This document shows, piece after piece, positions 2,881-58,777 of a stretch of DNA of 64,000 bases. The DNA is from an uncultured Alphaproteobacteria bacterium (GTDB lineage Bacteria; Pseudomonadota; Alphaproteobacteria; Rhizobiales; Kaistiaceae). Below the pieces are notes generated by a model, which worked only from the letters and a program-made list of their open reading frames with translations, was not told the origin of the DNA and ran no database searches. Numbering within the stretch: the first letter of the stretch is position 1; each line of letters begins with the position of its first letter. The stretch lies in contig CAWAHE010000011.1 in NCBI GenBank assembly GCA_963781775.1, positions 130,312 to 194,311 on the forward strand, written 5' to 3'. Made by a program: the position numbers and the translations under genes.

Positions 2881-2941
2881 GTTTTCGCTCTCCTGCCCGC
2901 CGCCGCGCCGACTTTACCAGCTTTGGCGGGCCGCGGGACGG

Positions 2942-4126: not shown

Positions 4127-4135
4127 CGTGACTCC

Positions 4136-20712: not shown

Positions 20713-20895
20713 GCTTCACGTTTCAGTGACTGGAGGGAGCTGTCGTCGGTTGGCCGGCGCAAACCGGCGGTCCGCACATTCTTCGGCCAGACCGAAAAGG
20801 GCAACCACAAATCGATGGGTAATCGTTCGGGCCCCCTGTCTCCATTTCAGCGCGGTCAACGCCGGACCCTCCGGCACAACAGAAAGACGAACATC

Positions 20896-23461: not shown

Positions 23462-23732
23462 GGCGGGTCAAGGCCGCCGGAAAGGGATGTCGGGGTCGCC
23501 GGCTGATATAGGGGATCGCCGACGGGAATGCACGTGCCGGCAGGAGTTCGTTAGCCCTCTCCGTTTTCCCTACGGGCCGGTAAAGCGAAACCACGATTTT
23601 CGGGCCAGCGAATTAATCAGCCAGGACCGCAACGCGAACGAAGGACGTCCAAAATGGCGCTGCGGCGTCTCGACGGATGCGCGGCCGGCGCGCCTCCCCG
23701 CCTTGCGCGTGAACACGCTCGCGCACGACCAC

Positions 23733-27473: not shown

Positions 27474-27477
<4 letters not shown>

Positions 27478-28478: not shown

Positions 28479-28480
28479 CG

Positions 28481-32099: not shown

Positions 32100-32312
32100 G
32101 ATTCTGTCCCTCCTGAGAGCCGCGCGCCGCGCGGCACGAACTGTCCCGTTCGGCGGCCGGTCAGAAGTCACGGCTCCGAAAGGTTATCTCCAATCCAGCC
32201 GAGCCGAGCCGATAATGCAAGGGCGCGTCGACCTGCTGCTTGACGGCGGATCGTCACGTTTCGTCAAAATGCGTGTCTCGCCAGCGGGTTACGCCAAAGC
32301 GCGGCTCACCCG

Positions 32313-33902
32313 TCATTCGCCGACGTCGACACCCGCGAAATTGTGGTGCCCGAGCGGATCGACCACATAGTTCTTCACGGACTTGGCGACGGGAACGCTT
32401 AGCGTCGTGTGGGCGAGGGTCAGCCACGGCGCCTGATCTGCGAATTGCTGCTGTGCGGTCTCGTACAGCTTGGCGCGCGCATCGACATCGGCCAGTGCGC
32501 GGGCGTCGAGCACCGCCTTGTCGAAATCGGGATTGCACCATTCGGCGCGATTGGAGATGCCGACGGTGTCGCAACTGAGCAGCGCACCCAGGAAGTTGTC
32601 GGGATCGCCGTTGTCGCTGGTCCAGCCGAACAGGACGGCGCCATCATGGTCGGGCGCCGCCGTGATCTTGATGAAAGCGCCGAGGTCGTCGCTGGCGATT
32701 TCCACCGCGACGCCGGCCTTGGCGAGATCGGCCTTGATCATTTCGGCCGCACGTTTCGGGTCGGGATCGTAAGCACGCGCGACCGGCGGCACCCATAACT
32801 TGATCTTGAGGTCGGTCACACCGGCGGCTGCCAATGCCGTTTTCGCGCCCTCGGGATCGGCGGCTGCGTCGGGGATCGCGTCGACATGCGACCACATGCT
32901 GGCCGGCAGTGGGCTCGTTGCCGGCGACGCGCCGCCGCCGTAGATCGCCTCGACCAGGGCCTTGCGATCGATCGCCATGTTGAGCGCCTTGCGCACGCGC
33001 ACGTCATCGAACGGCTTCTGCGCGGTGTTCCACGCCAGGTAGGCGACATCCGCTGCCTCAGCCTGAATGACGTTGACGTCCGCGTCCTGCTTCAGCGCGG
33101 CGATGTCGCTTGGCTCGGGCCCGCCGAGAACCTGGCAGTCGCCGGCCTTGAACATCTTCAAACGCGTCGCCGGATCGGGGCTGATGAGAAAGGAAAGCTG
33201 GTCGATGGCCGGCTTGCCGCGCCAGTAGTCCGGATTGGCTCGGTAGTTGATACGCACGTCCGGCTGATAGCCGACGAACTGGAAAGGGCCGGTGCCGATC
33301 GGCATGCGGTCAAGGTCTTCGCGTTTCTTGGCCTTGAGCAGCGTGTCGGCATATTCGGCCGAGACGATCGAGGCGAAGTCCATGGCGAGGTCGGCGAGGA
33401 TCGCCGGATCGCGCCGGGTCAGCGTGATCCTGACGGTCGCGTCGTCGACCTTGTCGATGGACGCGATCAGAGCCGGCATCGACATGCCGTCGAAATAGCT
33501 CCACACGCCGCCAGCGTAGTCGAACCAGGGGTTCTTGGTGTCCATCTGGCGCATCAGGCTGAACACGACGTCATCGGCGTTCAGGTCGCGCGTCGGCGTG
33601 TAGAAATAGGTCGAGTGGAACTTCACGCCCTGACGGAGATGGAACGTGTATTGGAGCCCATCTTCCGATACGTCCCAACTCTCGGCGAGCCCCGGAACCG
33701 GCTTGGTCGTGCCCGGCTCGAAGGCGACCAACCGGTCGTAGAGAGCCTCCGACGAAGCATCGAACGTGGCGCCCGCAATATGTGGCGCGGGATCGAAGCC
33801 CTCAGGGTTCTGTACCGCGCAAAACGCCAACGACTTCGCGTGGGCGGCCGAAGCCACCCCGGCGGCAACCATTGCCGCCAGTATCAACGTCACAGGTTTC
33901 AT
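32313..33902 (-). CDS. Second DppA-like family 5 substrate-binding protein (tandem paralogue)
   Basis: ORF 32313..34109, trimmed to the ATG at 33902 (MKPVTLILAAMVAAGVASAAHA). It carries KSLAFCAVQNPEGFDP, YDRLVAFE, NADDVVFSLMRQ and FGWTSDNGDPDNF. Confidence 0.85.
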   Translation of the reverse strand: MKPVTLILAAMVAAGVASAAHAKSLAFCAVQNPEGFDPAPHIAGATFDASSEALYDRLVAFEPGTTKPVPGLAESWDVSEDGLQYTFHLRQGVKFHSTYFYTPTRDLNADDVVFSLMRQMDTKNPWFDYAGGVWSYFDGMSMPALIASIDKVDDATVRITLTRRDPAILADLAMDFASIVSAEYADTLLKAKKREDLDRMPIGTGPFQFVGYQPDVRINYRANPDYWRGKPAIDQLSFLISPDPATRLKMFKAGDCQVLGGPEPSDIAALKQDADVNVIQAEAADVAYLAWNTAQKPFDDVRVRKALNMAIDRKALVEAIYGGGASPATSPLPASMWSHVDAIPDAAADPEGAKTALAAAGVTDLKIKLWVPPVARAYDPDPKRAAEMIKADLAKAGVAVEIASDDLGAFIKITAAPDHDGAVLFGWTSDNGDPDNFLGALLSCDTVGISNRAEWCNPDFDKAVLDARALADVDARAKLYETAQQQFADQAPWLTLAHTTLSVPVAKSVKNYVVDPLGHHNFAGVDVGE

Positions 33903-33999
33903 GGGTTCGGATGGTCCACTGGCAAACTTGAGCGGCCTCTTGCTCCTCGACGGCGCGCAACATTGCACGGAATCGCGCGAGGGCAAAGATTGAGGGCCC

Positions 34000-34749
34000 T
34001 CAGCGCCCGCCGGCCACGTCCAGCAGCGCACCATTGACGTAGGAGGCTTCGTCGGAGAGCAGCCAGACGATCGCCTCGGCAACCTCCTCGGCTGTGCCCG
34101 AACGGCCAAGCGGCACGTTGACGCCGAGACGCTCGGCCCGGCCGGGCTGTCCGCCGCTGGCGTGGATATCGGTCTCGATCAAACCGGGCCTGACCGCGTT
34201 GACGCGCACGCCTTGCGCACCGCTCTCCTTCGAGAGCCCAATGGTCAGCGTGTCGAGCGCTCCCTTGGTGAGGGCGTAGTCGATGTATTCGTGGGCGCCG
34301 CCCAAGCGGGCCGCCGCCGACGAGACGTTGACGATCGACCCGCCGGCGCCGCCGCGATCCGTGGCCATGCGCCGAACCGCCTCGCGCGCGGCCAGGATGG
34401 CGCCGAGAACGTTGATATCAATCACCGTCTTCAGCCGCTCGACGCTCATGTCGGCCAGCGTCTGCGGCGGCGGAACAATGATGCCGGCATTGTTGACGAG
34501 ACCATGGATTGGCCCGAAGGCATCCGCCGTCGCATCGAACAGCGCCATCACGTCGGCCTCGTCCGCGACGGTTCCCTTGACGGCAATCGCCTTGCCGCCC
34601 GCCGCTTCCACCGCAGCCACCGTTTCCCCGGCAGCCTTGGCGTTTTCGACGTAGCTGATCGCAATCGACCACCCGCGCCTGGCCGCAACCCGAGCCGTGG
34701 CTGCGCCGATGCCCCGGCTGCCGCCGGTGATCACAATGGTTTTCGGCAT
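34000..34749 (-). CDS. SDR family oxidoreductase
   Basis: ORF 34000..34764 with the ATG at 34749 (MPKTIVITGGSRGIG). It has NNAG and YALTK (YxxxK). Confidence 0.85.
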   Translation of the reverse strand: MPKTIVITGGSRGIGAATARVAARRGWSIAISYVENAKAAGETVAAVEAAGGKAIAVKGTVADEADVMALFDATADAFGPIHGLVNNAGIIVPPPQTLADMSVERLKTVIDINVLGAILAAREAVRRMATDRGGAGGSIVNVSSAAARLGGAHEYIDYALTKGALDTLTIGLSKESGAQGVRVNAVRPGLIETDIHASGGQPGRAERLGVNVPLGRSGTAEEVAEAIVWLLSDEASYVNGALLDVAGGR

Positions 34750-34824
34750 TTGCCCCTCCCCCAATTGTTGGCGCGAACTTCCACCGTGAACGAGGGAAGT
34801 GCAATCGTTCCGTGGGAGGGGCAG

Positions 34825-36213
34825 CTATGCCGGCGGCCAGGCTTTGAGCTTGCCCGGGTTCATCAGGCCGTGGGGATCGGCGAGACTCTTGAATTCCGGC
34901 TGCGGCGCGTCGGTGCGCTTCCATCCGGCGTTGTCGAGGACATAGGTGTGCGGACTGGACACCGCGCCGCCCATTGCCTCAGCCATGCGAACGACTTCCG
35001 CCAGCCGCTCCGGCGAACGGTAGCGCAGGATCGGCAGGCTCGACACGAACACGCGGCCGAGACGCCGCTGGAACTCGAGATGGATGAGGAGCTCGTCGCC
35101 GAACGTCGTTTCCATCTCCGCCACGGTCTCCATCTCGCGCCCCTCGGGAAAGCGGATCTGGAGATAGGTGATCGTCGGATCGACCTTGAGCGCGTGCAAC
35201 GTCGTGTGGTTCCAGGTGTATTCATAGAGCGGCGGCATGGTGCCTTTGCCGTCGAAGGCGGCGTCCTCGGCTTCGCGCGACCCGCGTTCGTAGACGATCT
35301 TCCCGCCGTGCTCAGCCACCATCTCGGCTAACACCGCGCCCTGCGCTTCGGCCACCATCACGATCGCCATCGCGTGACCGGCCGGCACCAGCGGCGCGAC
35401 GCGCTTCAGCATCGGCGGAATCGCGCTGTCGAAAACGCCGATCTCTTTCTTGGCGATGCCTTCCGCCGCGGCCAGCGCCCACCCGAACCTGGCCGCGCCA
35501 ACCAGCGTCGGAAACGCGATGATGCGTTCGGCCCATGGCTGCCACGGCGCCAGCGGCACCGTCACTGCCGTGATGATGCCGTTGACGCCATAGGCGTGCA
35601 GCACCTTGAGGATGTCGCGGCCGGTCAATTCGATGACCCGCGGCTCTTCCTCGACTGTCACAACCTCGACGGCGAGAACCGCGCCGGGATCGGCGATCTG
35701 CCCCCAGGTGCAGGAGCCGCAACCGGCAGCGCCACCGGCGACGAAGCCGCCGATCGTCGCCTGCTTGCGCGTCGAAGGATGGAAGCGCAGCTCCCAACGG
35801 CCAGCGTCGGCGAACCGATCGCGCAGCGTCCGGTCGATCTCCAGCAAGCGCGCACCAGCCTCGAAACTGGCAGCGCCCGGCGTCACGCTCACGGCACGGT
35901 CGAGGCCGGCCATGTCGAGCAAAACGCCACCTTCCAACGGCACGGCCTGACCGTAGTTGCCGGTCCCGCCACCGCGCACGGTCAAGGTCACCCGGTGACG
36001 GGCGCAGGCGGCAGCAATACGGATCACGTCATCCTTGCTGCGCGGCGCCACCACCAGTTCGGCACGCTTGTCATCGAGCATCGGCTTCAGGATCGGCGAG
36101 AACCAGAAGAAGTCGCGGCTCTTGAGCTTCAGCGTCGCGGCATCGTCGGCGATCGCGATACCGTCGAGATCGGCGCGCAGCGCCCCGAGGCGGTCGGGCG
36201 TCACGGCGTCCAT
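34825..36213 (-). CDS. FAD-binding (PCMH-type, FAD_binding_4) oxidoreductase, paralogue 1
   Basis: ORF 34825..36567, trimmed to the ATG at 36213 (MDAVTPDRL). It carries KSRDFFWFSPILK and VVAPRSKDDVIRIAAACARHRVTLTVRGGGTGNYGQAVPL. Its start overlaps the creatininase-family stop by 13 nt. Confidence 0.8.
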   Translation of the reverse strand: MDAVTPDRLGALRADLDGIAIADDAATLKLKSRDFFWFSPILKPMLDDKRAELVVAPRSKDDVIRIAAACARHRVTLTVRGGGTGNYGQAVPLEGGVLLDMAGLDRAVSVTPGAASFEAGARLLEIDRTLRDRFADAGRWELRFHPSTRKQATIGGFVAGGAAGCGSCTWGQIADPGAVLAVEVVTVEEEPRVIELTGRDILKVLHAYGVNGIITAVTVPLAPWQPWAERIIAFPTLVGAARFGWALAAAEGIAKKEIGVFDSAIPPMLKRVAPLVPAGHAMAIVMVAEAQGAVLAEMVAEHGGKIVYERGSREAEDAAFDGKGTMPPLYEYTWNHTTLHALKVDPTITYLQIRFPEGREMETVAEMETTFGDELLIHLEFQRRLGRVFVSSLPILRYRSPERLAEVVRMAEAMGGAVSSPHTYVLDNAGWKRTDAPQPEFKSLADPHGLMNPGKLKAWPPA

Positions 36214-36998
36214 AGGCGACCCGTGTCGAAGCGCTGCACGTCCTGGCAAAGTTCCACGAAGGCCCGCGCCTGATGATCGACAATGGCCTTGCCCTTGTCG
36301 GCCGTCGCGGCAGCGGCGTTGCCGACCGGCCCCTCCGGATTCAGGTCCTGCGCCTTCCAGCCGAACTGGGTCGTGCCATGCGCCCGCAGGTATTTGAATT
36401 CCTTGATGAAGTCGAGCTGACTGGAGCGGAAGTCCTTGGCGTTCTCCATGCGCACCAGGTCGGCACGAAGATGCAGCATGACCGACGTCTCGATATCGCC
36501 GCCGTGGATTCCGTAGAGCGATTCTTCCGTTGCCGTCACGCCCTCCGGATAACCGAAACGCGACCACGCCGTCGCCACCACCAGCATGTCGTGACGCACG
36601 CGCAACTCGCGCGCGACGATATCGACCATCGGCACATTACCGCCGTGCGAATTGACCACGATCAGCTTCTCAATGCCGGCACGGCGAACGCTGTCGCCGA
36701 TCTCCAGCCACAACCTGGTCGTCGTCTCCCAGGTGGACGTCAACGTTCCCGGCGAGGAGATGTGTTCGTTCGACTTGCCGATCGCCTGCACGGGCAGGAA
36801 GGTCACCGGCAGATCCTCGGGCAGCAGCTCAATCGAGCGGCGGATCATGCCCTCCGCGATGCAGGTGTCGGTATAAACCGGCAGATGCGGCCCGTGCTGC
36901 TCGATTGCTGCAACCGGCAGGACGGCGATCCAGCCGGTGGTGTCATTGTCCGCGAAATCGCGGGTAGTCATTTCAGCCCAATAGCGGCGGGGAAGCAT
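36201..36998 (-). CDS. Creatininase (creatinine amidohydrolase/ArfB/MftE) family protein
   Basis: The ORF is 265 aa and carries AVLPVAAIEQHGPHLP and VVNSHGGN. Confidence 0.8.
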   Translation of the reverse strand: MLPRRYWAEMTTRDFADNDTTGWIAVLPVAAIEQHGPHLPVYTDTCIAEGMIRRSIELLPEDLPVTFLPVQAIGKSNEHISSPGTLTSTWETTTRLWLEIGDSVRRAGIEKLIVVNSHGGNVPMVDIVARELRVRHDMLVVATAWSRFGYPEGVTATEESLYGIHGGDIETSVMLHLRADLVRMENAKDFRSSQLDFIKEFKYLRAHGTTQFGWKAQDLNPEGPVGNAAAATADKGKAIVDHQARAFVELCQDVQRFDTGRLWTP

Positions 36999-37080
36999 GT
37001 GCGGTCAATCCGGTCGGCGATAGCGCCGCCATAATGACCGCTGCACGACTGTTCCGCAATAGGGCGCGTGGTCGCCCCTC

Positions 37081-39576
37081 TCAGGCGGCTGACACTTTGC
37101 TGCCCGGCCGCTGGAACAGGGCAATCGCATCGTCAAGGATCATCGGTCGTCCGGTCAGGAAGCCTTGCACTTCGGTGCAGCCCTCGGCCTTGACCCGATC
37201 GAACTGTTCGCGGGTTTCGACACCCTCGGCGGTCGTGATGATGCCAAGGCTGGCGCTGAGGCCGGTTACCGCGCGGATGATCGCAAGCGAGCTGGCATCG
37301 GTGTTGACGTCGGTGATGAAACGCCGGTCGATCTTGATCTTGTCGAACGGGAAACTCTGGAGATAGCTGAGTGACGAATAGCCCGTGCCGAAATCGTCCA
37401 TAGCCACACGAACGCCCAACGCGCGCAGCTGGTGCAAGATCGTCAACGTCGCCTCGCTCTCTATGAGCAGCGTCGACTCAGTGATCTCCAACTCGAGACG
37501 GGTCGCGGCCAGCCCGGACGCAGCGAGGGCCCCGATTACGGCGGGCATGAGGTGCACGCTCCGGAATTGGGCGGCCGAAAGATTCACCGCCACCTTGACC
37601 GGCGCAGGCCAGCGCACAGCGTCGAGACAGGCCCGCCGCAGCACCCATTCACCGATCGGGACGATCAGCCCGGTCTCCTCGGCAAGCGGGATAAACTCCA
37701 GAGGTGCGACCACGCCGCGTTCCGGATGGTGCCAGCGAAGCAGCGCCTCGAAACCTGTTACCGCGTTCGTCGCCAGGTTGAATTCCGGCTGATAGAGCAG
37801 CTCGAACTGCTTCATTTCGATCGCCCGGCGCAGATCGAGCTCGAGCGTGCGGCGCGCCTGCATGCGGGCGTCCATCTCCTGCTCAAAGAACCGATAGACG
37901 CCGCGTCCGTCCGCCTTGGCACGATAGAGGGCCAGGTCGCCGGCCTTGAGAAGCTGGTCGGTATCGTTGCCGTCGGCCGGGCCTACCGCGATACCCGCGC
38001 TCAGACTGATGATCGCCTCCTGACCGTCAATCGCGTACGGCTCGCCGACCGCCTCGATCAATCGCTGGGCAAGGGAGTGAGCCGCAGGGGGCTGCACCTC
38101 GCCGACCTGGACGATGGCGAACTCGTCGCCACCGAGACGCGCGACCGTGTCGTTTTCACCGATGCAACCAGACAAGCGTTTGGCGGCCTCCAGCAGCAAT
38201 TTGTCGCCGATCGGATGGCCGAGGGTATCGTTGATATCCTTGAAGTGATCGATGTCGAGGCAGATGACGGCAACCTGGCCGCCGCGTCCGGCGTGCAAAA
38301 GGGCGTCTTCGATCCGCTCGCGCAACAGGATGCGATTGGGCAGATCGGTCAGCGCATCATGGCGCGTCAGATGGGCAATCTTCGCCTCTGCCATATGGCG
38401 GTCGGTGATGTCCTCATGGGTCGACACCCAGCCACCGCCTTCCATCGGCTGATAGACCAGACTGACGATCCGACCATCGTGGAACTGGATGATGTCCTTG
38501 AAGGGCTTCTGCCCGCCGACGATGCCGGCAAGGTATTCGACATACTGCGTCGGGTCGCTGCCAGGATAACTCCCCGCGTCCACGCGGTGATCGAGGATCG
38601 TCTTGAGCTGCGTGCCGCGCTGCGCCAGTTCCGGCGGCAACCCGTAGATCTCGGCGTAGCGCGAATTCGCGATGATCAACCGCTTGTCAGCGTCGAACAT
38701 CACGAGGCCGATCGGCATGTTGTTGACCGCTTCGCTGAGCCGCTGCCGCTCCTGCTCTGCGGCCTCGGACAGTTCGTGCGCGCGTATGAGGCTCGCCCCG
38801 TAGCCGTCGACGGCTGCGATCAACGCGCCGATCTCGTCCTTGCGTCCGCGTTCCCCCGCAACCGTGGCCGACGCGTCGCCGGCGGCCAGCCGGCGCATGG
38901 CCTCGCTGATTCGAAGGATCGGTTCGCTGATGCCGCGGTTGACCCAGGCGGTGGCCACGCCGATGCCGCACAGCGCAAGAGCGAGCGCACCGATCGTCAA
39001 CCAGAAGGCCGTCGCGAACGTGCCGTAAACCTCTCTCCCGGCTGCGTCGCTTTGGCGGCTGGCATAAGCGATCAGGCCGTCGATGCGCTGCAAGGCGTGA
39101 TCAAAAATCGCGAAGTTCGCGGCCTCGAAGTCGCGATGCTGCAGCGCCATTTCGTCGGACCCGATGCCCGGCATGGTGCGCGCTATTGCGGCTTCGTACT
39201 CGCCCCAGACCTGGTGCAGGACCGAATAGAGAAGGCGCTCCTCGGCGTCTCCGGGAGTTGCCTCGAAGAGCCGCCAGTCACGTTCGAGCTTCTGCGAGAC
39301 CGACCGGATCCGATCGCCCAGGTGGACCTGCGGTCCCAGGACGGTTTCATTCAGGCGCCAGCGAGCCAGCAATCCGTACTCGGCCATGTCCGCCTTGATT
39401 TCGCCGAGCAATTCAATCCGCGGCATCCAGTAGGCAACGATCTGCCCGGCGGACCGATCGAGGGCCTGAACGTTGTAGAGCCCGGCGGCTCCCACCAAAC
39501 CGACAAGGGAGACCGCAAGCCCGAGGCCTGCGAGCAGCTTGGTCCGGATACTGGCGTCGCGGAGCGCGATCATCAC
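37081..39576 (-). CDS. Membrane sensor diguanylate cyclase/phosphodiesterase (4-helix-bundle sensor, HAMP, PAS, GGDEF, EAL)
   Basis: The ORF is 831 aa. An N-terminal TM segment is followed by an MCP-like helical sensor and a second TM segment. It carries RLGGDEF, FEALLRW and DDFGTGYSS. I saw no RxxD I-site five residues upstream of GGDEF. Confidence 0.9.
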   Translation of the reverse strand: MMIALRDASIRTKLLAGLGLAVSLVGLVGAAGLYNVQALDRSAGQIVAYWMPRIELLGEIKADMAEYGLLARWRLNETVLGPQVHLGDRIRSVSQKLERDWRLFEATPGDAEERLLYSVLHQVWGEYEAAIARTMPGIGSDEMALQHRDFEAANFAIFDHALQRIDGLIAYASRQSDAAGREVYGTFATAFWLTIGALALALCGIGVATAWVNRGISEPILRISEAMRRLAAGDASATVAGERGRKDEIGALIAAVDGYGASLIRAHELSEAAEQERQRLSEAVNNMPIGLVMFDADKRLIIANSRYAEIYGLPPELAQRGTQLKTILDHRVDAGSYPGSDPTQYVEYLAGIVGGQKPFKDIIQFHDGRIVSLVYQPMEGGGWVSTHEDITDRHMAEAKIAHLTRHDALTDLPNRILLRERIEDALLHAGRGGQVAVICLDIDHFKDINDTLGHPIGDKLLLEAAKRLSGCIGENDTVARLGGDEFAIVQVGEVQPPAAHSLAQRLIEAVGEPYAIDGQEAIISLSAGIAVGPADGNDTDQLLKAGDLALYRAKADGRGVYRFFEQEMDARMQARRTLELDLRRAIEMKQFELLYQPEFNLATNAVTGFEALLRWHHPERGVVAPLEFIPLAEETGLIVPIGEWVLRRACLDAVRWPAPVKVAVNLSAAQFRSVHLMPAVIGALAASGLAATRLELEITESTLLIESEATLTILHQLRALGVRVAMDDFGTGYSSLSYLQSFPFDKIKIDRRFITDVNTDASSLAIIRAVTGLSASLGIITTAEGVETREQFDRVKAEGCTEVQGFLTGRPMILDDAIALFQRPGSKVSAA

Positions 39577-39797
39577 GGGCTTGGTACCCTGGCGTGCCGG
39601 CCACGAAGGTTTGCCGGCTGGGACAGCCGCTACCTTTGCGAGAAAAATGATCGAAAAGTCTTAAGCCCGGCCGGAAATCGGCACAAAAAGGCTTGCCGCC
39701 GACTGGCTGCCACGAATTCCGTGGGAGGGAACGGTCGGAACGCCTATCAATTTACCAATTCAATCAAATCGGCATAAAGCGTGTTGCCGGATTGGCC

Positions 39798-41141
39798 TCA
39801 CAGGGCCTTCAGGAACGCTCTCGCCGCCTCGCCGTGCTCAATACGGAGGCGCGCCACGTCGACGCCGATCGGATGGCCGTCCTCGACCCGCCACTGCCCG
39901 CCGACCATCACGCGATCGGCGGCATGGGCGCCGCACAGCACAAGCGCCGCCAGCGGGTCGCCGGCGCCCGAGAACCGCAATTCGTCGAGCGTGTACATGG
40001 CGAGATCGGCCTGTTTTCCGACTGCGATGGCGCCGATGTCGTCTCGCCCAAGACAGCGCGCCGAGCCCTCGGTCGCCCAGCGTAGAACGTCGAAATGCGT
40101 GACCGCCGCCGCATTGTAGGTCAGCCGGTTGATCATGAGCGCGTGCCGCACGCCCTCCATCAGGTTGGAATTGTCGTTGGAGGCAGAGCCATCGACGCCA
40201 AGGCCAATCGGACTTCCGGCCGCCTCCAGCTCCTTCGTCCGGCATTGGCCGGAGGCGAGAACCATGTTCGAGGTCGGGCAGTGGCAAACGCCGACCCGAT
40301 GGCGTCCCAGGCGCGTGACCTCCTCGTCGGTGAAGTGGACGCCGTGAGCGAGCCAGACGCGATCGCTCAGCCAGCCGCACTCCTCCAGGTAGTCGACCGG
40401 ACGGCAGGAGAAGTGCTCCAGGCAATACTCGTTCTCGTCCTGGGTCTCGCCGAGGTGGGTATGCAGCTTGCACTGGAAGCGTTCGGCGAGCCCAACGCTG
40501 TCGACCATCAGCCGTTTGGTGACCGTAAACGGCGCGCATGGCGCGAGCGCCACCTGCATCATCGCGCCCTCGCTGGCGTCATGATAGCGACCAAGAATGC
40601 GCTCGCAGTCGGCAAGGATCGTATCCTCGTCCTGGACGACCGAGTCGGGCGGCAGCCCGCCATCTTTTTCGGAGAGGTTCATCGAACCGCGGGTAAGCGT
40701 CATGCGGATGCCGAGGCGGCCGGCCTCCTCCGCCTGGATATCCATGGCGTCCTCGAGCCCGTCCGGGAACAGGTACTGGTGGTCGGACGCGCAGGTGCAT
40801 CCCGACAGCATCAATTCGGTCAGCGCCAGCCGCGTCGCCAGCCGGAACGCCTCCGGCTTCACGTTCCTTGCCCAGATCGGATAGAGCGCCTGCAGCCAGG
40901 GAAACAGCTCCTTGTTGATGGCCGAGGGATGCGCGCGCGTGAGCGTCTGGAAGAAATGGTGATGCGTGTTGATCAGCCCGGGAATGACGACATGCCGGCT
41001 GGCGTCGAACTCCTGATCAATGCGGCCGGTCGGCTTGCCGCCGGCGGGCACCAGCTCGGCGATCTTGCCGCTATCGACAACCACGCCGCCGCCGGCTCCC
41101 TCCGCCAGAACGGCGAGCGGCTCCTTGATCCACAAGCGCAT
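39798..41141 (-). CDS. Amidohydrolase of the cog0402 deaminase group (8-oxoguanine deaminase-like)
   Basis: The ORF is 447 aa. It carries the metal site PGLINTHHHFFQT, HTHLGE and GVDGSASND. The substrate cannot be assigned from sequence alone. Confidence 0.75.
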   Translation of the reverse strand: MRLWIKEPLAVLAEGAGGGVVVDSGKIAELVPAGGKPTGRIDQEFDASRHVVIPGLINTHHHFFQTLTRAHPSAINKELFPWLQALYPIWARNVKPEAFRLATRLALTELMLSGCTCASDHQYLFPDGLEDAMDIQAEEAGRLGIRMTLTRGSMNLSEKDGGLPPDSVVQDEDTILADCERILGRYHDASEGAMMQVALAPCAPFTVTKRLMVDSVGLAERFQCKLHTHLGETQDENEYCLEHFSCRPVDYLEECGWLSDRVWLAHGVHFTDEEVTRLGRHRVGVCHCPTSNMVLASGQCRTKELEAAGSPIGLGVDGSASNDNSNLMEGVRHALMINRLTYNAAAVTHFDVLRWATEGSARCLGRDDIGAIAVGKQADLAMYTLDELRFSGAGDPLAALVLCGAHAADRVMVGGQWRVEDGHPIGVDVARLRIEHGEAARAFLKAL

Positions 41142-41144
41142 GAT

Positions 41145-41534
41145 TCAGCCCGTCCCCACCGCCGTCGCTTCGACCTCGACCAAGAACTCCGGACGGGTGA
41201 AGCCTGATACGATGACCAGTGTCGAGGCCGGCGGCGGATTGCCGACAAGACGGTCGCGGACCGCCATGTAGTCCTTCATGTGCTCGCGCCGCGTGACGAA
41301 TGCGCTGATCCGAACGATATCGGCGAGGCCGAGCCCGGCTTCGGCGAGGATCGCAGCAATATTGCGGAAGCAGATTTCGGCCTGCTCGGTAACCGACGCG
41401 GGGATCGAATCGTCGGGGCCAATTCCAAGCTGCCCCGAACACAGCACAAGACGGTGGCCAGCCGGAACGGCGACACCGTGGCTGTAGCGCCCGAATGGCG
41501 GTCGGACGCCGGCAGGATTAAGCGAAATTGCCAT
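41145..41534 (-). CDS. RidA (YjgF/endoribonuclease L-PSP) family protein
   Basis: The ORF is 129 aa, carrying SGQLGIGPD and VRISAFV..EVEATA. There is a 3-bp gap to the deaminase gene. Confidence 0.85.
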   Translation of the reverse strand: MAISLNPAGVRPPFGRYSHGVAVPAGHRLVLCSGQLGIGPDDSIPASVTEQAEICFRNIAAILAEAGLGLADIVRISAFVTRREHMKDYMAVRDRLVGNPPPASTLVIVSGFTRPEFLVEVEATAVGTG

Positions 41535-41851
41535 GAGGACCCCGGAACGTTCACCCCGAACGCTACGATTGCGGGACGCCGCCTGACAAGACCCGCGCCG
41601 GACAGGTTTAGGTCAGACACTGCCGCTTTCTTGTGCACTGGGCTTGCCCTAGAGTACCGCCGCGAGCGGCGGATAGGGCCAACAATGCCCGAGCGGGCAG
41701 TGTTCTGGCGGCGGGCGGGTGGCATATGTCTTGCGACCAGCCAAGGTCGCGTTTGACTGCGGTCGGAGACCGCAGAACCGGGACGGGACCGGAAGGAAGC
41801 AAAGTGGCTCACGAACAGCCACGTCCAAACGGAAGGCGGAGAACAAGGCAC

Positions 41852-42862
41852 ATGAGCATTCTGAGAAACATCAGCTTCGGCCTGGCGGCAGGCGCCATGG
41901 CCGCGGCATTCGCCGGCCCGGCGCTGGCGCTCGACGAGGTTTCCTACGGCACCAACTGGCTGGCCGAGGCCGAGCACGGCGGCTTCTATCAGGCGGTTGC
42001 CGACGGCACTTACGAGAAATACGGCCTCAAGGTCACCATCGTGCAGGGCGGCCCGCAAGCGGCCAACCAGGCGCTGCTCCTCGGCGACAAGATCCAGTTC
42101 TACATGGGCGGCATGTTGGGCGCGTTCAACGCCATCGTCAACGACGTGCCCGTCATGGAGGTCGCGTCCCTGTTCCAGAAGGATCCGCAGGTCCTCATCG
42201 CCCACCCGGATGCCGGCGTCGAGAAATTCGAGGATCTCGCCAAACTCCCGACCATCTTCATGGGCAAGGACGGCTTCTCGACCTATTTCCAGTGGATGAA
42301 GGTCGCCTACAAGGGCTTCAAGGACGAGCAGTACAAGCCATACACCTTCAACCCGGCGCCGTTCCTCGCCGACAAGATGTCGGCCCAGCAGGGCTACCTG
42401 ACGTCCGAGCCCTATGAGATCGAGAAGCAGGGCGGCTTCAAGCCGAAGGTGTTCCTGCTCGCCGACGCCGGTTACGACCCCTACTCGACCACCATCGAGG
42501 CCAAGCAGGACTACGTCGCCAAGAACCCCGACATCGTCCAGCGGTTCGTCGATGCGACGATCATCGGCTGGTACAACTATCTCTACGGCGACAACAAGGC
42601 CGCCAACGACCTGATCAAGAAAGACAATCCCGAGATGACCGACGGTCAGATCGCCTTCACCATCGCCCAGATGAAGGAGCACGGGATTCTCGAATCCGGC
42701 GATGCTTTGACGTTGGGTATCGGTTGCATGACCGACGCGCGCGTCAAGGACTTCTACGGCAAGGTGGTCAGCGCCGGCGTCATCAAGGCCGATGTCGACA
42801 TCTCCAAGGCCTACACGACGAAATTCGTGTGCAAGAAGGTCGGCATGGACCTGAAGAAATAG
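41852..42862 (+). CDS. ABC transporter substrate-binding protein, NMT1/THI5-like (NitT/TauT family)
   Basis: ORF 41633..42862, trimmed to the ATG at 41852 (MSILRNISFGLAAGAMAAAFAGPALA). It carries YGTNWLAEAEHGGFYQA. Confidence 0.8.
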   Translation: MSILRNISFGLAAGAMAAAFAGPALALDEVSYGTNWLAEAEHGGFYQAVADGTYEKYGLKVTIVQGGPQAANQALLLGDKIQFYMGGMLGAFNAIVNDVPVMEVASLFQKDPQVLIAHPDAGVEKFEDLAKLPTIFMGKDGFSTYFQWMKVAYKGFKDEQYKPYTFNPAPFLADKMSAQQGYLTSEPYEIEKQGGFKPKVFLLADAGYDPYSTTIEAKQDYVAKNPDIVQRFVDATIIGWYNYLYGDNKAANDLIKKDNPEMTDGQIAFTIAQMKEHGILESGDALTLGIGCMTDARVKDFYGKVVSAGVIKADVDISKAYTTKFVCKKVGMDLKK

Positions 42863-42997
42863 ATCGTGACGCGGGCTGGCATCGTGCCGCCCGGATACTA
42901 GAAAGAGGGGGCGGGGCCAAGGCTCCGCCACCATTTTGCGAGTGACCGACGAAGCGACCGTCGGCGCCGGCGTCCTGGCGCAAAACGGAGCAGAATC

Positions 42998-43828
<831 letters not shown>

Positions 43829-43847
43829 TGATCCCGCAGCAGTTCAG

Positions 43848-44723
43848 ATGACCACACTCGAAGCCGAAAAGACCGACATCGCCACCACTATCCGTCAGGG
43901 CGAGGACGAGGCGCCGCGCCCACCGCCGGCCGAAGGCCTCGGCGAGCGGATAGCCAGGATTGCGATCCCGGTCGGCATGCTGGTCCTGCTGATCGCCGTC
44001 TGGCAGATCTACTGCGACGCCGCGCACGTACCCCACTACATTTTGCCGAGCCCGCTGCGCATCGCGCAGGCATTTGGCACCGACTGGCCGATCCTGCTGC
44101 CGGCGCTGATGGTAACGCTGAAGATCACGTTTTCCGCGCTCGCCATCGCACTCGTCGGTGGCGTCACCCTCGCCATCCTCATGGCGCAATCGAAATGGAT
44201 CGAGCTCGCGCTTTATCCCTACGCCGTTATCCTGCAAGTGACGCCGATCGTCGCGATCGCGCCGCTGATCCTGATCTACGCCCCGAACACCCAGAGCGCA
44301 CTGCTCATCTGCGCCTGGCTGGTCGCCTTTTTTCCGATCCTGTCCAACACCGCGCAGGGCCTGCGCTCGACCGACCACAATCTGCTCAACCTGTTCGAGC
44401 TCTATGGCGCCAATCGCTGGCAGACGCTCGTCCTCCTGCAGATGCCGAACGCCCTGCCCTATTTCCTCGCCGGTCTGAGGATCGCCGGCGGCCTCGCGCT
44501 GATCGCCGCGGTCGTGGCGGAATTCGCCGCTGGTTCGGCCGGCGCCGGCTCGGGTCTCGCATTCCGGCTGCTTGAGTCGCAGTTCCGGCTCAACATCCCG
44601 CGGCTGTTTGCGGCGCTCGTGCTGCTGTCCTTCACCGGCGTCCTGATCTTCTTCGCGACCAGCCTGATCTCGCACTTCTTCCTGAGGAAGTGGCACGAGA
44701 GCGCCGTGCGCAGAGAGAACTAG
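43848..44723 (+). CDS. ABC transporter permease (NitT/TauT family)
   Basis: ORF 43803..44723 with the ATG at 43848 (MTTLEAEK). It is multi-TM and has an EAA-like loop, LFELYGANRWQTLVLLQMPNALP. Confidence 0.85.
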   Translation: MTTLEAEKTDIATTIRQGEDEAPRPPPAEGLGERIARIAIPVGMLVLLIAVWQIYCDAAHVPHYILPSPLRIAQAFGTDWPILLPALMVTLKITFSALAIALVGGVTLAILMAQSKWIELALYPYAVILQVTPIVAIAPLILIYAPNTQSALLICAWLVAFFPILSNTAQGLRSTDHNLLNLFELYGANRWQTLVLLQMPNALPYFLAGLRIAGGLALIAAVVAEFAAGSAGAGSGLAFRLLESQFRLNIPRLFAALVLLSFTGVLIFFATSLISHFFLRKWHESAVRREN

Positions 44724-44734
44724 GGCCGCGGGCA

Positions 44735-46051
44735 ATGGCCAAAGGCTTCGCCAAGGTTCCACGCGAGACGCGCTTCGTGCTGGCGAACGCCACGCTGCCG
44801 GCGGTATTGGTCGATGGCTACGCCGGCAAACCTGACAGCGATGGCCTGACTGGCGCCGACATCACGATCAAGAACGGCACGATCGAACGCATCGACCCGC
44901 CTGGGCGACGCACGCGATTGCCCAAACTCGACCTCGACCGCGGCATGGTGTGGCCGTGCTTTGTCGACATGCATACCCACATCGACAAGGGCCACATCTG
45001 GCCCCGCCGGCCCAATCCCGACGGCACGTTCGCCGGCGCACTTGACGCCGTGAAGCACGACCGCGAGCACCACTGGCGCTCCGACGACGTCTCTCGGCGC
45101 ATGGATTTTGCGCTCCGCGCCGCTTACGCACACGGCACGGCTCTATTGCGCACGCACCTCGATTCGGCGGCGCCGCAGCACAAGACGAGCTGGCCGGTCT
45201 TCGCGGAAATGCGCGAGCGCTGGGCCGGACGTGTCGATCTGCAGGGCGTGTCGATCTTCGGCATCGAGCATTTCCTCGATGAAACTTTCGCCGACGAAAT
45301 TGTCGCCACGATCGCCGACCACGGTGGCGTCCTTGGCGCCGTGACGTTCATGATTCCAGAACTCGATCGCCTGCTCGAACTGATGATGCACCGCGCGGCC
45401 AATCGCGGCCTCGACCTCGATTTTCACGTCGACGAGACGTCCGACCCGAACGCGCGCTCGCTGCGCGCCATTGCCGACGCGGCGCTGCGCACCGATTTCC
45501 CCGGCCGCATCGTTGTCGGTCATTGTTGCTCGCTTGCGGTCCAGCCCGACGCCGAAGCCGAGGCGACGCTGGAGCGGGTCGCCGAAGCCGACATTGCGGT
45601 CGTCTCGCTGCCGATGTGCAACATGTACCTGCAGGACCGTGTCGCCGACCGCACGCCGCGCTGGCGCGGCATCACCCTCTTGCACGAATTCGTCCAGCAC
45701 GGGGTTCCGGTCTCGGTCGCTTCCGACAATACCCGCGACCCGTTCTATGCCTACGGCGATCTCGACATGGTGGAAGTCTTCCGCGAGGCAGTGCGCATCG
45801 CCCATTTCGACCACCCGTTCGGCCGCTGGCCGGCGGCGGTCGCCCGCACGCCCGCCGAGGTGATCGGCCGGCCGGACCGCGGCGTGATCGCAGCGGGCAG
45901 CCCCGCCGATCTGGTGCTGTTCCGCGCCCGCACTTTTACCGAGCTGCTGGCCCGTCCCCAAGCGGATCGCACGGTGTTACGCTCCGGCAAGGCCATCGAC
46001 CGCACGTTGCCAGACTACCGGGAGCTCGACGACATCATGGTATCTGCATGA
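44735..46051 (+). CDS. Cytosine deaminase-like amidohydrolase (CodA family; cytosine/creatinine deaminase-type)
   Basis: ORF 44690..46051 with the ATG at 44735 (MAKGFAKV). It carries FVDMHTHIDKGH, DFHVDE and VASDNTRDPFY, and is collinear with E. coli CodA as I remember it. Confidence 0.75.
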   Translation: MAKGFAKVPRETRFVLANATLPAVLVDGYAGKPDSDGLTGADITIKNGTIERIDPPGRRTRLPKLDLDRGMVWPCFVDMHTHIDKGHIWPRRPNPDGTFAGALDAVKHDREHHWRSDDVSRRMDFALRAAYAHGTALLRTHLDSAAPQHKTSWPVFAEMRERWAGRVDLQGVSIFGIEHFLDETFADEIVATIADHGGVLGAVTFMIPELDRLLELMMHRAANRGLDLDFHVDETSDPNARSLRAIADAALRTDFPGRIVVGHCCSLAVQPDAEAEATLERVAEADIAVVSLPMCNMYLQDRVADRTPRWRGITLLHEFVQHGVPVSVASDNTRDPFYAYGDLDMVEVFREAVRIAHFDHPFGRWPAAVARTPAEVIGRPDRGVIAAGSPADLVLFRARTFTELLARPQADRTVLRSGKAIDRTLPDYRELDDIMVSA

Positions 46052-47466
46052 GCAGCTACGACATCGAAGCGCTGAAGAAGGAACTCGACGGCATCCGCGT
46101 CGAGGACCACCCGGCCATCGTCAAGCAGAAGAGCCGCGACTTCTATTGGTATTCGCCGATCCTCAAGCGCCAGCTTGACCACATCACCGGCGATCTCATC
46201 GTCTCGCCGAAGAGCGAGGCGGAGGTAATCCGCGTGCTCTCCGCCTGCTACCGGTTGGGCATCCCGGTGACGCCGCGCGGCTCCGGCACCGGCAACTACG
46301 GTCAGGCCATGCCGCTTTCCGGCGGGGTCGTGCTGAGCCTCTCCGACATGAACAAGGTGAGGTCGATCGCTCCCGGCCGCGTGGTCTCCGAGCCCGGCGC
46401 CATCCTCGCCCACGTCGACAAGGAGACGCGCAAGGCGAGCGGGCAGGAACTGCGCATGCACCCTTCGACCTACAACACCGCGTCGGTCGCCGGCTTCATC
46501 GCCGGCGGCTCCGGCGGCGTCGGCTCGATCAACTGGGGCGGCCTGCGCAACATCGGCAACGTGCTCGGCGCGCGCATCGTCACCATGGAAGCGGAACCCC
46601 GCGCGATGGCCCTCGACGGCTGGGATCTCGCCAAGGTGATGCACGCCTACGGCACCAACGGCATCATCACCGAGGTCGAGGTGCCGCTCGATGCCGCCTA
46701 TGACTGGATCGACGTGATCGTCGGCTTCGACGATTATCTCGACGCGGTGCGCTTCGCGAGCCTCATAGGCGACGAGGATGGCCTCCTGTTCAAGGAAGTC
46801 GCGACCGTCGCGGCGCCGGCGCCCTACGACTACTTTCTGCGTCATCAGAAGTTCCTGCGCCGCGAACAGTCCGTGGTGCTGCTCATGGTGGCGCCGCACG
46901 CGCTGGCGCCTTTCCTGACGCTGGCGAAGCGCGAGAAGGCCGATATCCGCTACCGTTCCGACAGCGCCACCGACGAGGAGAAGAAGGGCCTGCCGCCCGT
47001 CTTCGAACTCGCCTGGAACCACACCACGCTGCGTGCGCTCCGGGTCGATCCGACGATCACCTACCTGCAGACGCAGTACGGCACCGACGAACACGTCGAC
47101 AAGATCGAGCGCATGACGAAACTGCTCGGCGACGAGATGCCGGGTCACTTGGAATTCGTTCGCTTCGACGGCAAACTTGCCGCTGCCGGCCTGCCGCTCG
47201 TGCGCTACACCAGCGAGGAGCGGCTCGAGGAACTCGTCAAGATCCACGAGGACAACGGCGTGCCGGTCTTCAATCCGCACCGCTACACGCTGGAGGAAGG
47301 CGGCATGAAGCGAACGGATGCCGTCCAGCTTGCTTTCAAGAAGGAGGCCGACCCCAAGGGCCTTCTCAACCCCGGCAAGATGATCGCCTGGGACAATCCG
47401 GACTTCGACCTGAACTCGGACAAGGTCTATCTGTTCCCCGGTCTCCAGCAGGCGGCGGCCGAGTAG
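46048..47466 (+). CDS. FAD-binding (PCMH-type) oxidoreductase, paralogue 2
   Basis: This is the in-frame tail of ORF 45523..47466. The ATG at 46048 overlaps the codA-like stop as ATGA. It carries KSRDFYWYSPILK and RGSGTGNYGQAMPL, and aligns by eye along its full length with 34825..36213. Confidence 0.8.
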   Translation: MSSYDIEALKKELDGIRVEDHPAIVKQKSRDFYWYSPILKRQLDHITGDLIVSPKSEAEVIRVLSACYRLGIPVTPRGSGTGNYGQAMPLSGGVVLSLSDMNKVRSIAPGRVVSEPGAILAHVDKETRKASGQELRMHPSTYNTASVAGFIAGGSGGVGSINWGGLRNIGNVLGARIVTMEAEPRAMALDGWDLAKVMHAYGTNGIITEVEVPLDAAYDWIDVIVGFDDYLDAVRFASLIGDEDGLLFKEVATVAAPAPYDYFLRHQKFLRREQSVVLLMVAPHALAPFLTLAKREKADIRYRSDSATDEEKKGLPPVFELAWNHTTLRALRVDPTITYLQTQYGTDEHVDKIERMTKLLGDEMPGHLEFVRFDGKLAAAGLPLVRYTSEERLEELVKIHEDNGVPVFNPHRYTLEEGGMKRTDAVQLAFKKEADPKGLLNPGKMIAWDNPDFDLNSDKVYLFPGLQQAAAE

Positions 47467-47468
47467 GC

Positions 47469-48050
47469 ATGCGCACCTTCGTCCTATTCGCCCATCCGGT
47501 CGAAACCAGTTTCGCTGCGGCCCTCCACCGCACCGTCGTCGATAATCTCAAGGCTGGCGGACACGAAGTCGATGATTGCGACCTCTATGCCGAGGGATTC
47601 AATCCGGTGCTTTCGCGCGAAGAGCGGCTGAACTATCACGACGAGGAAGTCTGCACGCAGCCGGTTCAGCAATATGTTGATCGCCTGCGTGCGGCTGACG
47701 GGCTGGTCCTCAACTTTCCGGTCTGGAATTTCGGGTACCCGGCGATCCTCAAGGGCTTCTTCGACCGCGTCTTCCTGCCCGGCGTATCGTTCAAGCTGGC
47801 GCACGGCCGCACATGGCCCAACCTGCACAACATCCGCAAGCTCGGCGCCGTCGTCACCTATGGCGGCGACCGCTGGCGCGCCCGCCTGATGGGCGATCCG
47901 CCGCGCAAGGTGGTCAAACGGGCCCTGCGCGCCGTCGTTCATCCAACGGCGAAGAGCCGCTATCTCGCCCTCTACGACATGAACCGAAACACCGAGGCGA
48001 CTTGCCAGGCTTTCCTGCAGCGGGTAGGGCACGAGATGCGGGCGTTCTGA
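47469..48050 (+). CDS. NAD(P)H-dependent oxidoreductase (flavodoxin-like fold, NQO/MdaB/KefF-like)
   Basis: The ORF is 193 aa and carries MRTFVLFAHP and LVLNFPVWNFGYPAILKGFFDRV. There is a 2-bp gap after the FAD oxidoreductase. Confidence 0.8.
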   Translation: MRTFVLFAHPVETSFAAALHRTVVDNLKAGGHEVDDCDLYAEGFNPVLSREERLNYHDEEVCTQPVQQYVDRLRAADGLVLNFPVWNFGYPAILKGFFDRVFLPGVSFKLAHGRTWPNLHNIRKLGAVVTYGGDRWRARLMGDPPRKVVKRALRAVVHPTAKSRYLALYDMNRNTEATCQAFLQRVGHEMRAF

Positions 48051-48116: not shown

Positions 48117-48605
48117 ATGGGGTTCGACCATCGCCGAACGATTACGCACAGACTCTCCCAGGCGGCGCACGCCTACCGGGTGCGAGCCGGGAGTCAGCTA
48201 TCCCGGATCAACCTCCACTCCGGTCAGGAAACCCTGCTCAAGGCGCTGGCCGCCAATGACGGCATGTCGATGAGCGACCTCGCCTCGGCTCTCGGGGTCC
48301 AGCCGCCGACGGTCACCAAGATGATCAGCCGGCTCGCCGCCCAGGACTATGTCGAACGCCGCGCCTCGGCCGGCGACGGCCGCCAGGCGCAGGTGTTCCT
48401 CACCGAACGCGGCCAGCGGGCGATCGCCATGATCGACAAGCTGTGGAAACGCATCGAGAAAACCGCGCTCGCCGATATCGACGACAAGGACCGCAAGCGG
48501 CTTCGCAAGTTGCTGCGCCAGGTCGAGCGCAACCTCGGGCCGGGCCGCGACGACCATTCGACGGACGTTGACGAGGGCGAGGCCGAAGAGGCCGCGGCTG
48601 GCTGA
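48117..48605 (+). CDS. MarR family transcriptional regulator
   Basis: The ORF is 162 aa with a wHTH: MSMSDLASALGVQPPTVTKMISRLAAQDYVERR. Confidence 0.85.
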   Translation: MGFDHRRTITHRLSQAAHAYRVRAGSQLSRINLHSGQETLLKALAANDGMSMSDLASALGVQPPTVTKMISRLAAQDYVERRASAGDGRQAQVFLTERGQRAIAMIDKLWKRIEKTALADIDDKDRKRLRKLLRQVERNLGPGRDDHSTDVDEGEAEEAAAG

Positions 48606-58530: not shown

Positions 58531-58777
58531 TGGGATATCCTTTTCCCTAGTTGTCACAATGGGCGCACGCACGCCCGAACGTTGTCGGCAGCTTGTTGAT
58601 CGGGGAAAGGAAGCAAAGCGTCTTATCGAGACGGCCAGGGAAATTCCCAAGACCCGCGAGGCGTTTACCCCCGCGCCGTTTTCCAGTCTCCGGGGTAAAA
58701 GTGCCCGAACGGTGCAGATATGACTCGAAAATGCCCAGATTGCAAGGCGCGGCATATTTTCGCGGAGCCCGACAACC

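Follow-up and report, generated by a model that had tools for sequence, protein, structure and literature searches.

Two coupled hydrolase-flavoprotein gene pairs form one divergent island, a probable pteridine breakdown locus, in a Kaistiaceae bacterium

We analysed a stretch of 64,000 nucleotides (the window) from an uncultured alphaproteobacterium of the family Kaistiaceae (GenBank assembly GCA_963781775.1, contig CAWAHE010000011.1, positions 130,312 to 194,311 of the forward strand), which carries two gene pairs, each made of a hydrolase gene followed by a flavoprotein gene. Pair 1 couples a creatininase-family hydrolase to the flavoprotein FAD1, and pair 2 couples a CodA-like amidohydrolase to the flavoprotein FAD2 (Table 1). 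An earlier note, made from the sequence alone, had described these four open reading frames (ORFs) and an overlap within each pair, and ORF coordinates and Pfam matches showed all of them to be present as described. The pair 1 overlap comprises 13 nt, with the FAD1 start codon (ATG) at 36213-36211 and the creatininase-family stop codon (TGA) at 36203-36201; in pair 2, the deaminase stop and the FAD2 start share the sequence ATGA at 46048-46051. The flavoproteins had also been taken for paralogues on an alignment by eye, and this was confirmed. They are 42% identical over 450 residues (E 1e-124), and every motif quoted earlier was aligned: KSRDF[FY]W[FY]SPILK, RG[GS]GTGNYGQA, HAYG.NGIIT, WNHTTL.AL.VDPTITYLQ and NPGK.

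The earlier note had presented the genes as two pairs 8 kb apart. The pairs are real, yet both are arms of one divergent island, because in two related genomes (L003 and L004) the 8-oxoguanine-deaminase-like, creatininase-family and FAD1 genes form an uninterrupted block that is divergent from the transporter operon. The divergent promoter region lies at approximately 41535-41851. In the window, the leftward arm is split by a gene for a GGDEF/EAL signalling protein, which occupies this site in L001, L002 and L085 and is absent from it in L003 and L004. As the three leftward genes are contiguous in the latter two loci, the signalling gene is interpreted as an insertion, and its product is probably outside the pathway. 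The region from 34.0 to 48.6 kb of the window is most likely a single divergently transcribed catabolic island for pteridines.

Table 1. Genes of the island and of the adjoining importer, with positions in the window
Feature	Position	Strand	Evidence or remark
Dpp/Opp-type importer ATPase	27474-28688	-	Pfam/NCBIfam
Dpp/Opp-type importer permeases	28481-29422, 29397-30404	-	Pfam/NCBIfam
Dpp/Opp-type importer SBP_bac_5 (two genes)	30504-32171, 32313-34109	-	Pfam/NCBIfam
SDR oxidoreductase	34000-34764	-	60 nt 3' of FAD1
FAD1 flavoprotein (pair 1)	34825-36213	-	PF01565 (FAD_binding_4); PCMH/VAO fold
Creatininase-family hydrolase (pair 1)	36201-36998	-	PF02633, E 7e-71
4HB_MCP-HAMP-PAS-GGDEF-EAL signalling protein	37081-39576	-	Pfam; between the 8-oxoguanine-deaminase-like and creatininase-family genes
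8-oxoguanine-deaminase-like amidohydrolase	39798-41141	-	NF006055, 651 bits against a cut-off of 532
RidA/YjgF-family protein (imine/enamine deaminase family)	41145-41534	-	PF01042, E 1e-21; first leftward gene
NMT1/THI5-like periplasmic binding protein (NitT/TauT-type ABC importer)	41852-42862	+	PF09084; probable start
ABC transporter ATPase	42998-43828	+	PF00005
ABC transporter permease	43803-44723	+	PF00528
CodA-like amidohydrolase (pair 2)	44735-46051	+	NF005759 (PRK07583), 667 bits
FAD2 flavoprotein (pair 2)	46048-47466	+	PF01565 (FAD_binding_4); 6V42 orthologue
Flavodoxin-fold NAD(P)H oxidoreductase (NQO1/MdaB-like)	47469-48050	+	PF02525, PF03358; 2 nt after FAD2
MarR-family regulator	48117-48605	+	PF12802, PF01047

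The deaminase of pair 2 aligned with protein ACM27458.1 of Rhizobium rhizogenes K84 at 57% identity over 436/438 residues, with 2 gaps. ACM27458.1 carries the UniRef name 'Pterin deaminase', and is Arad3529, the pterin deaminase (EC 3.5.4.11) of Agrobacterium radiobacter / R. rhizogenes K84 described by Fan et al. 2013. The R. rhizogenes gene directly 5' of the FAD2 orthologue falls in the 90%-identity cluster that contains ACM27458.1. Gene order in the R. rhizogenes loci (L164-L167) is creatininase, LysR, NMT1, ABC, permease, deaminase, FAD, Flavodoxin_2, and the window deaminase lies in the same context. Arad3529 reportedly acts best on 6-formylpterin and pterin-6-carboxylate, and genomic analysis is said to suggest that it starts an undescribed pterin degradation pathway.

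Residues of the active site were compared with those of the CodA structures 1K6W and 1R9Z. The mononuclear metal and catalytic residues (in CodA numbering HxH, His214, Glu217, His246 and Asp313) are kept in the window deaminase, where they lie in aligned HTH, HVDE, GH and SD segments. CodA Gln156 is replaced by Ile and Asp314 by Asn; Gln156 of Escherichia coli CodA is the cytosine-binding residue. A true CodA cytosine deaminase (EC 3.5.4.1) was rejected on the loss of this residue and on a score of 105.6 bits for model NF006685, against a cut-off of 483. The protein did pass NF005759, a model named 'cytosine deaminase' that also holds the K84 pterin deaminase lineage. On these comparisons, the CodA-like protein of the window is an orthologue of the K84 pterin deaminase Arad3529.

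A second link to pteridines came from the flavoproteins. FAD2 matched PDB entries 6V42/6V43 at E 1e-206 (phmmer), and its AlphaFold model (pLDDT 76) superposed on 6V42 with a TM score of 0.88 (E 1.5e-57, approximately 64% identity; Foldseek). Entry 6V42, released on 2020-12-02, is titled 'flavin oxygenase ... involved in folate catabolism' and names its molecule 'FAD/FMN-containing dehydrogenase'. FAD1 matched the same entry over residues 9-460 at E 6e-115 and approximately 44% identity. The 6V42 protein clusters inside the FAD2 subfamily, and FAD1 belongs to a separate one. The RG[GS]GTG motif has Thr where BBE-like and 6-hydroxy-D-nicotine oxidases have the His of the covalent flavin bond; because this His is replaced, FAD is likely to be held non-covalently in both proteins.

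The earlier note had named glycolate or D-lactate oxidase subunits as a family to which the flavoproteins might turn out to belong, and this was not what we found. GlcD orthology was rejected, as the two proteins scored 66 and 82 bits for TIGR00387 against a cut-off of 567.9 and the match was limited to the first ~200 profile positions, the FAD domain. The FAD-oxidase C-terminal domain PF02913 had no Pfam match in either FAD1 or FAD2. Identity was only 13-20% to the other relatives of solved structure, namely D-2-hydroxyglutarate dehydrogenase, D-lactate dehydrogenase and alkyl-DHAP synthase.

The hydrolase of pair 1 has a full-length PF02633 match, and the metal-binding motifs of the family (EQHGPH, NSHGGN and HGGDIETS) appear to be present when the translation is read by eye. 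It missed every curated cut-off. The best NCBIfam match was MftE (108 bits against 172), followed by creatininase (TIGR04448, 75.8 against 235), IolN (43 against 245) and ArfB (27 against 180), and solved creatininases matched at E 4e-12 with low identity. As it falls below the cut-off of each characterised subfamily, the protein represents a distinct, uncharacterised subfamily of metal-dependent amidohydrolases. A true creatininase (EC 3.5.2.10) was rejected on the TIGR04448 score and on its missing partners: creatinase, N-methylhydantoinase, carbamoylsarcosine amidase and sarcosine oxidase families were not found among the Pfam-scanned ORFs, which cover the window except for a few gaps. Archaeal ArfB, another member of the creatininase family, deformylates a 5-formylaminopyrimidinone.

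Conservation of the gene neighbourhood was assessed in a scan of one genome per species, which gave 585 confirmed flavoprotein loci. The best 80 were kept, all of them FAD2 orthologues (63-81% identity), and neighbours were counted at the 60 loci that had both 10-kb flanks. The flavodoxin-like NAD(P)H oxidoreductase and the NMT1-type importer (binding protein, ATPase and permease) accompanied FAD2 at 60/60 loci each, the CodA-like deaminase at 59/60, RidA at 59/60 and a creatininase-family gene at 54/60. An 8-oxoguanine-deaminase-like gene was near in 10/60 and an FAD1-type paralogue in only 2/60, so the form found in the window, with its extra FAD1, is a rarer and elaborated version of the cluster. 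Clusters occurred in Hyphomicrobiales (Bauldia, Kaistia, Rhizobium, Agrobacterium, Mesorhizobium, Roseibium and Stappia), in Inquilinus and in Kiloniellaceae. Plasmid records matched by the CodA-like protein numbered 188, of which 144 came from Rhizobium.

A metagenome scan seeded with FAD1 added 80 more diverse loci (42-82% identity to FAD1). Across all 168 loci, a creatininase-family or CodA-like hydrolase gene directly abutted the flavoprotein gene (<200 bp, same strand) in 127/194 cases and lay within 6 kb in 158/194. The recurring flavoprotein-hydrolase coupling that had been proposed from this one locus thus held in other genomes, far beyond chance. The tight packing of genes is a trait of the whole operon and not of the hydrolase/oxidase junctions alone. 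The ATPase, permease, deaminase, FAD and reductase genes of annotated Rhizobium loci follow one another with an overlap or a gap of 1 nt. The overlaps seen in the window are conserved: the creatininase-then-FAD1 pairs of other loci overlap or abut in 8/8 cases, and 84/88 CodA-like-then-FAD2 junctions are at <=30 nt.

Each flavoprotein subfamily keeps its own type of partner. In the FAD2-type subfamily, which includes 6V42, a deaminase gene is directly 5' in 88/104 members and the reductase gene is next in 73/104. FAD1-type genes are directly adjacent to a creatininase-family gene, in either order, in 18/35 cases, or in 13 of the 22 with enough flank. A third subfamily has a creatininase-family gene directly 5' in 10/10 and another paralogue next in 9/10, and a fourth has a deaminase 5' in 7/9. 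Tandem arrays also occur, with up to three paralogues: three follow a CodA-like gene in one operon in L133 (6637-12042) and L148 (6682-12069), and eight other contigs have two flavoprotein paralogues after a creatininase-family gene. The family as a whole comprises approximately 335 clusters at 50% identity (E <=1e-30), with at least 6 subfamilies among the sampled members.

Constant pairing of FAD1-type genes with a creatininase-family gene was rejected, as two relatives (65-67% identity) stand alone. One lone FAD1-type gene, in L081, lies beside adjacent genes for a WD40 beta-propeller protein and a CobW/zinc-chaperone-like GTPase (2807-4878); members of the same two families are encoded a few kb apart on the minus strand of the window, at 19732-20715 and 22412-23467, respectively. 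Two soil metagenome loci (L098 412-10156 and L097) carry a FAD1-type mini-cluster, in which FAD1 and a creatininase-family gene diverge from genes for an XdhA-like protein, a 380-aa amidohydrolase, a split TPP enzyme (TPP_enzyme_C plus TPP_enzyme_N) and RidA.

The remaining genes of the island encode import, redox and regulatory proteins. The mechanical ORF of the NMT1-type binding protein opens at GTG 41633, but the probable start is ATG 41852, which is followed by a predicted signal peptide (MSILRNISFGLAAGAMAAAFAGPALA) and gives a length of 336 aa, against 338 aa in orthologues. With the start moved in this way, the divergent intergenic region is approximately 317 bp. A PDB sequence search returned no informative relative of this binding protein. 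The 8-oxoguanine-deaminase-like protein matched PDB entries 3HPA (E 7e-108), 7WW2 (E 1e-103) and 2PAJ (E 2e-70), and the flavodoxin-fold oxidoreductase matched 3LCM (E 2e-17). The MarR-family protein is a candidate regulator of the island; a MarR gene is at the same place in Bauldia, Stappia and Roseibium loci, and Rhizobium has a LysR gene. An Rfam scan of the island found neither riboswitches nor other RNA elements.

Beyond FAD1, the SDR and Dpp/Opp-type importer genes are possibly co-transcribed with it, and their link to the pathway is uncertain. SBP_bac_5 genes are also found 3' of FAD1 in L084, L086 and L089; in L002 and L004, the SDR and SBP_bac_5 genes are located elsewhere. In Roseibium (L082), an SBP_bac_5/M20 peptidase operon adjoins a lone FAD1-type gene.

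Two independent anchors, the K84 pterin deaminase and the 'folate catabolism' title of 6V42, point to pteridines. We therefore propose that the island probably breaks down pteridines, namely pterins freed from folate, from other pterin cofactors or from pigments. The 8-oxoguanine/isoxanthopterin-deaminase-type neighbour is consistent with this, as its substrates have the same 2-amino-4-oxopyrimidine type of ring as pterins, and xanthine-dehydrogenase-family genes, occasional neighbours of the cluster, also count in its favour.

In the proposed scheme, the NMT1-type ABC system would import the heterocycle, and the CodA-like enzyme would convert the pterin (a 2-amino-4-oxopteridine) to the matching lumazine, as has been shown for the K84 orthologue. 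FAD2, going by the PDB title, may then oxidise or oxygenate that lumazine, with the flavodoxin-like NAD(P)H oxidoreductase delivering electrons to the oxygenase or possibly re-reducing quinonoid products. The leftward operon would carry out later steps, whose order and substrates are likewise putative. The creatininase-family metallo-amidohydrolase may cut a lactam or an N-acyl/formyl-amino bond of the oxidised ring, FAD1 may oxidise the freed amino-pyrimidine, RidA would hydrolyse the imine from the FAD1 step, and the 8-oxoguanine-deaminase-like enzyme could strip a further amino group from the ring. Each pair would thus be a two-step module of hydrolytic C-N cleavage followed by flavin oxidation of the electron-rich product, and the gene overlap would keep both enzymes of a module in step.

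Several observations weigh against a pteridine function. Arad3529 is said to accept many substrates in vitro, which leaves more than one candidate for its substrate in the cell. Our literature search found no published substrate, reaction or description of the 6V42 protein, whose function is that of the deposition title. Family chemistry and synteny are what suggests a role for the creatininase-family enzyme, FAD1, RidA, the reductase and the SDR, and the more distant FAD1-type genes (65-67% identity) have no hydrolase nearby. The island contains no obvious gene for the p-aminobenzoyl-glutamate half of folate. Finally, the sole published pteridine pathway (PMC12391406) uses other enzymes than those of the island.

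Among the alternatives, we considered whether the island is a folate-cleaving module, in which the flavoproteins oxidise the C9-N10 bond of folate or pteroate to give 6-formylpterin and p-aminobenzoyl-glutamate, RidA speeds hydrolysis of the imine, the deaminase takes 6-formylpterin and the creatininase-family enzyme removes glutamate. Cytokinin dehydrogenase, a VAO-fold enzyme that cleaves a side-chain amine, is a model for such a reaction. The wording 'folate catabolism' in the 6V42 title suits this scheme, as do the reported preference of Arad3529 for 6-formylpterin and pterin-6-carboxylate, the near-universal RidA gene, the highest score of the creatininase-family protein being against a peptidase (MftE), the Dpp/Opp-type importers 3' of FAD1 here and in relatives, and a PaoABC-type aldehyde oxidoreductase that adjoins the R. 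leguminosarum cluster. Nevertheless, that title specifies an oxygenase and not an amine oxidase, the deaminase gene precedes the flavoprotein gene in the operon, and the binding protein of the importer is of the small-heterocycle (THI5/ThiY-like) type. In addition, no gene for p-aminobenzoate breakdown is present and a molybdenum enzyme adjoins the cluster in few loci (~5/~165). Folate cleavage is therefore considered unlikely.

It is also distinctly unlikely that the island, or its creatininase-FAD1-RidA-8-oxoguanine-deaminase arm alone, degrades other N-heterocycles, such as oxidised purines (8-oxoguanine or urate derivatives) or substituted pyrimidines, with pterin activity as a side activity. 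This would account for an 8-oxoguanine deaminase equivalog that scores above its cut-off and for the XdhA-like, amidohydrolase and split TPP enzyme genes that adjoin FAD1-type mini-clusters. Binding proteins of the THI5/ThiY-like type, to which that of the window belongs, are known to bind pyrimidines, and the broad substrate range reported for Arad3529 would also fit. Both the K84 pterin deaminase and 6V42, however, indicate pteridines, and the 8-oxoguanine-deaminase-like gene is part of so few clusters (10/60).

The earlier note had read creatininase and creatinine/cytosine deaminase as alternative entry enzymes for cyclic amidines, each followed by a new flavin oxidation. Pfam does assign one hydrolase to the creatininase family and the other to the CodA-like amidohydrolases, and the NCBIfam label of the deaminase is 'cytosine deaminase'. 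The scores for TIGR04448 and NF006685 are nevertheless far below their cut-offs, CodA Gln156 is replaced, the deaminase is orthologous to a pterin deaminase, and creatinine-pathway partner families were not among the Pfam-scanned ORFs of the window. Moreover, both hydrolases normally share one cluster with a single flavoprotein and are thus not alternatives. The creatinine reading is not supported by these results and is very improbable. That the flavoproteins are ordinary D-2-hydroxyacid, glycolate or D-lactate dehydrogenases unrelated to the neighbouring hydrolases is scarcely credible: their nearest other structures are D-2-hydroxyglutarate and D-lactate dehydrogenases (Foldseek E 1e-19, TM ~0.65) and the GlcD model matches the FAD domain, but the identity to those structures is 18-20%, the GlcD match is confined to the N-terminal FAD domain at scores far below the cut-off, PF02913 is not detected, and synteny with the N-heterocycle hydrolases is strict.

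Returning to pteridine breakdown, the flavoproteins, the dedicated creatininase-family subfamily and RidA could together form a second, molybdenum-independent route for full breakdown of the pteridine ring. We put this forward tentatively, as a possibility that is somewhat doubtful. In such a route, the paralogous flavoproteins would act one after another as oxidases or oxygenases, each receiving its substrate from a C-N hydrolase of its own, and opening or deacylation of the oxidised ring would fall to the creatininase-family enzyme. A molybdenum hydroxylase was rejected as a core part of the cluster on the small number of loci that it adjoins. On plasmid pRle248e of R. leguminosarum 248 (L163/L168, NZ_CP048281.1 237779-242551), the creatininase-family gene of the cluster and an operon for a PaoABC-type molybdenum aldehyde oxidoreductase with XdhC are arranged divergently.

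Two features outside the island were recorded in the same window. Upstream of an Orn/DAP/Arg decarboxylase gene (7165-8328) lie an Rfam ar45 small RNA (6823-6931, plus strand, 51.6 bits) and, immediately after it, a speF leader (6940-7085, 51.3 bits). The TRAP transporter gene dctM (58665-60179, minus strand) appears frameshifted, with DctM positions 1-257 in one frame and 260-411 in another (58778-59392); either the gene is a pseudogene or the assembly has an error near 59390.

For decades there was no answer to how bacteria get rid of pterins, which come from folate, biopterin, molybdopterin and the pigments of insects or plants. The pathway published in 2025 needs a molybdenum enzyme and leaves 6-substituted pterins unexplained. 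The island is widespread in rhizobia and in other soil and marine Alphaproteobacteria, and ties a characterised pterin deaminase to a crystallised, unpublished flavoenzyme and to uncharacterised partners, which makes it a concrete set of genes with which another route can be tested. Many of these genes are labelled "cytosine deaminase", "creatininase family protein" or "FAD-binding oxidoreductase", a widespread mis-annotation that the present reading corrects. The literature search found no open paper on the flavoprotein or the cluster, on the creatininase-family partner, RidA and the reductase in this setting, or on the steps after deamination. The earlier statement that the coupling belongs to no assigned pathway stood for pair 1, which has no characterised counterpart, and did not stand for pair 2, which matches a pterin deaminase and 6V42 and belongs to a partly characterised system (Arad3529 and the 6V42 protein). 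As far as was searched, pair 1 and the subfamily-specific pairing are undescribed in the literature.

Compared with known systems, the window deaminase has in common with Arad3529 its NCBIfam family, its metal and catalytic residues and 57% identity over the full length. The Arad3529 locus of R. rhizogenes has the same gene order of creatininase, regulator, NMT1 binding protein, ATPase, permease, deaminase, FAD and flavodoxin-like reductase genes. Unlike the LysR regulator there, that of the window is a MarR protein, and the window island has an extra 8-oxoguanine-deaminase-like gene and a second flavoprotein beyond the K84-type locus. With E. coli CodA, the deaminase shares the amidohydrolase TIM barrel but not Gln156. 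FAD2 and the 6V42 protein are orthologues of the same subfamily, and an equal function is suggested by this orthology together with the PDB title. FAD1 shares the fold and full-length architecture of 6V42, but differs in its own subfamily and in having a creatininase-family gene instead of a deaminase gene as partner. GlcD and LDHD have the same PCMH/VAO two-domain fold as FAD1 and FAD2 at 18-20% identity, and sequence models see only the FAD domain. PF02633 is common to the pair 1 hydrolase and the creatininase family (creatininase, MftE, ArfB and IolN), although the window protein is under all of their cut-offs.

The pathway of Cupriavidus sp. LA-1 (Doi et al., Commun Biol 2025, PMC12391406), whose authors term their mechanism the first for bacterial pteridine degradation, has its overall task in common with the proposed function of the island. 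There, pterin is deaminated to lumazine, and the pyrazine ring is oxidised and then hydrolytically processed, by means of a molybdenum-dependent lumazine dehydrogenase, an amidohydrolase-2 isomerase and a UbiX/UbiD decarboxylase (PMC12391406). Molybdenum enzyme, amidohydrolase-2 and UbiD proteins were not detected among the Pfam-scanned ORFs of the window, and the R. leguminosarum plasmid region has neither the isomerase nor the UbiD genes known from Cupriavidus. The same paper reports that CDA-like deaminases replace its pterin deaminase in Rhizobiales clusters (PMC12391406). In place of the LA-1 enzymes, the window island has PCMH-fold flavoproteins, a creatininase-family hydrolase, RidA and a flavodoxin-like reductase.

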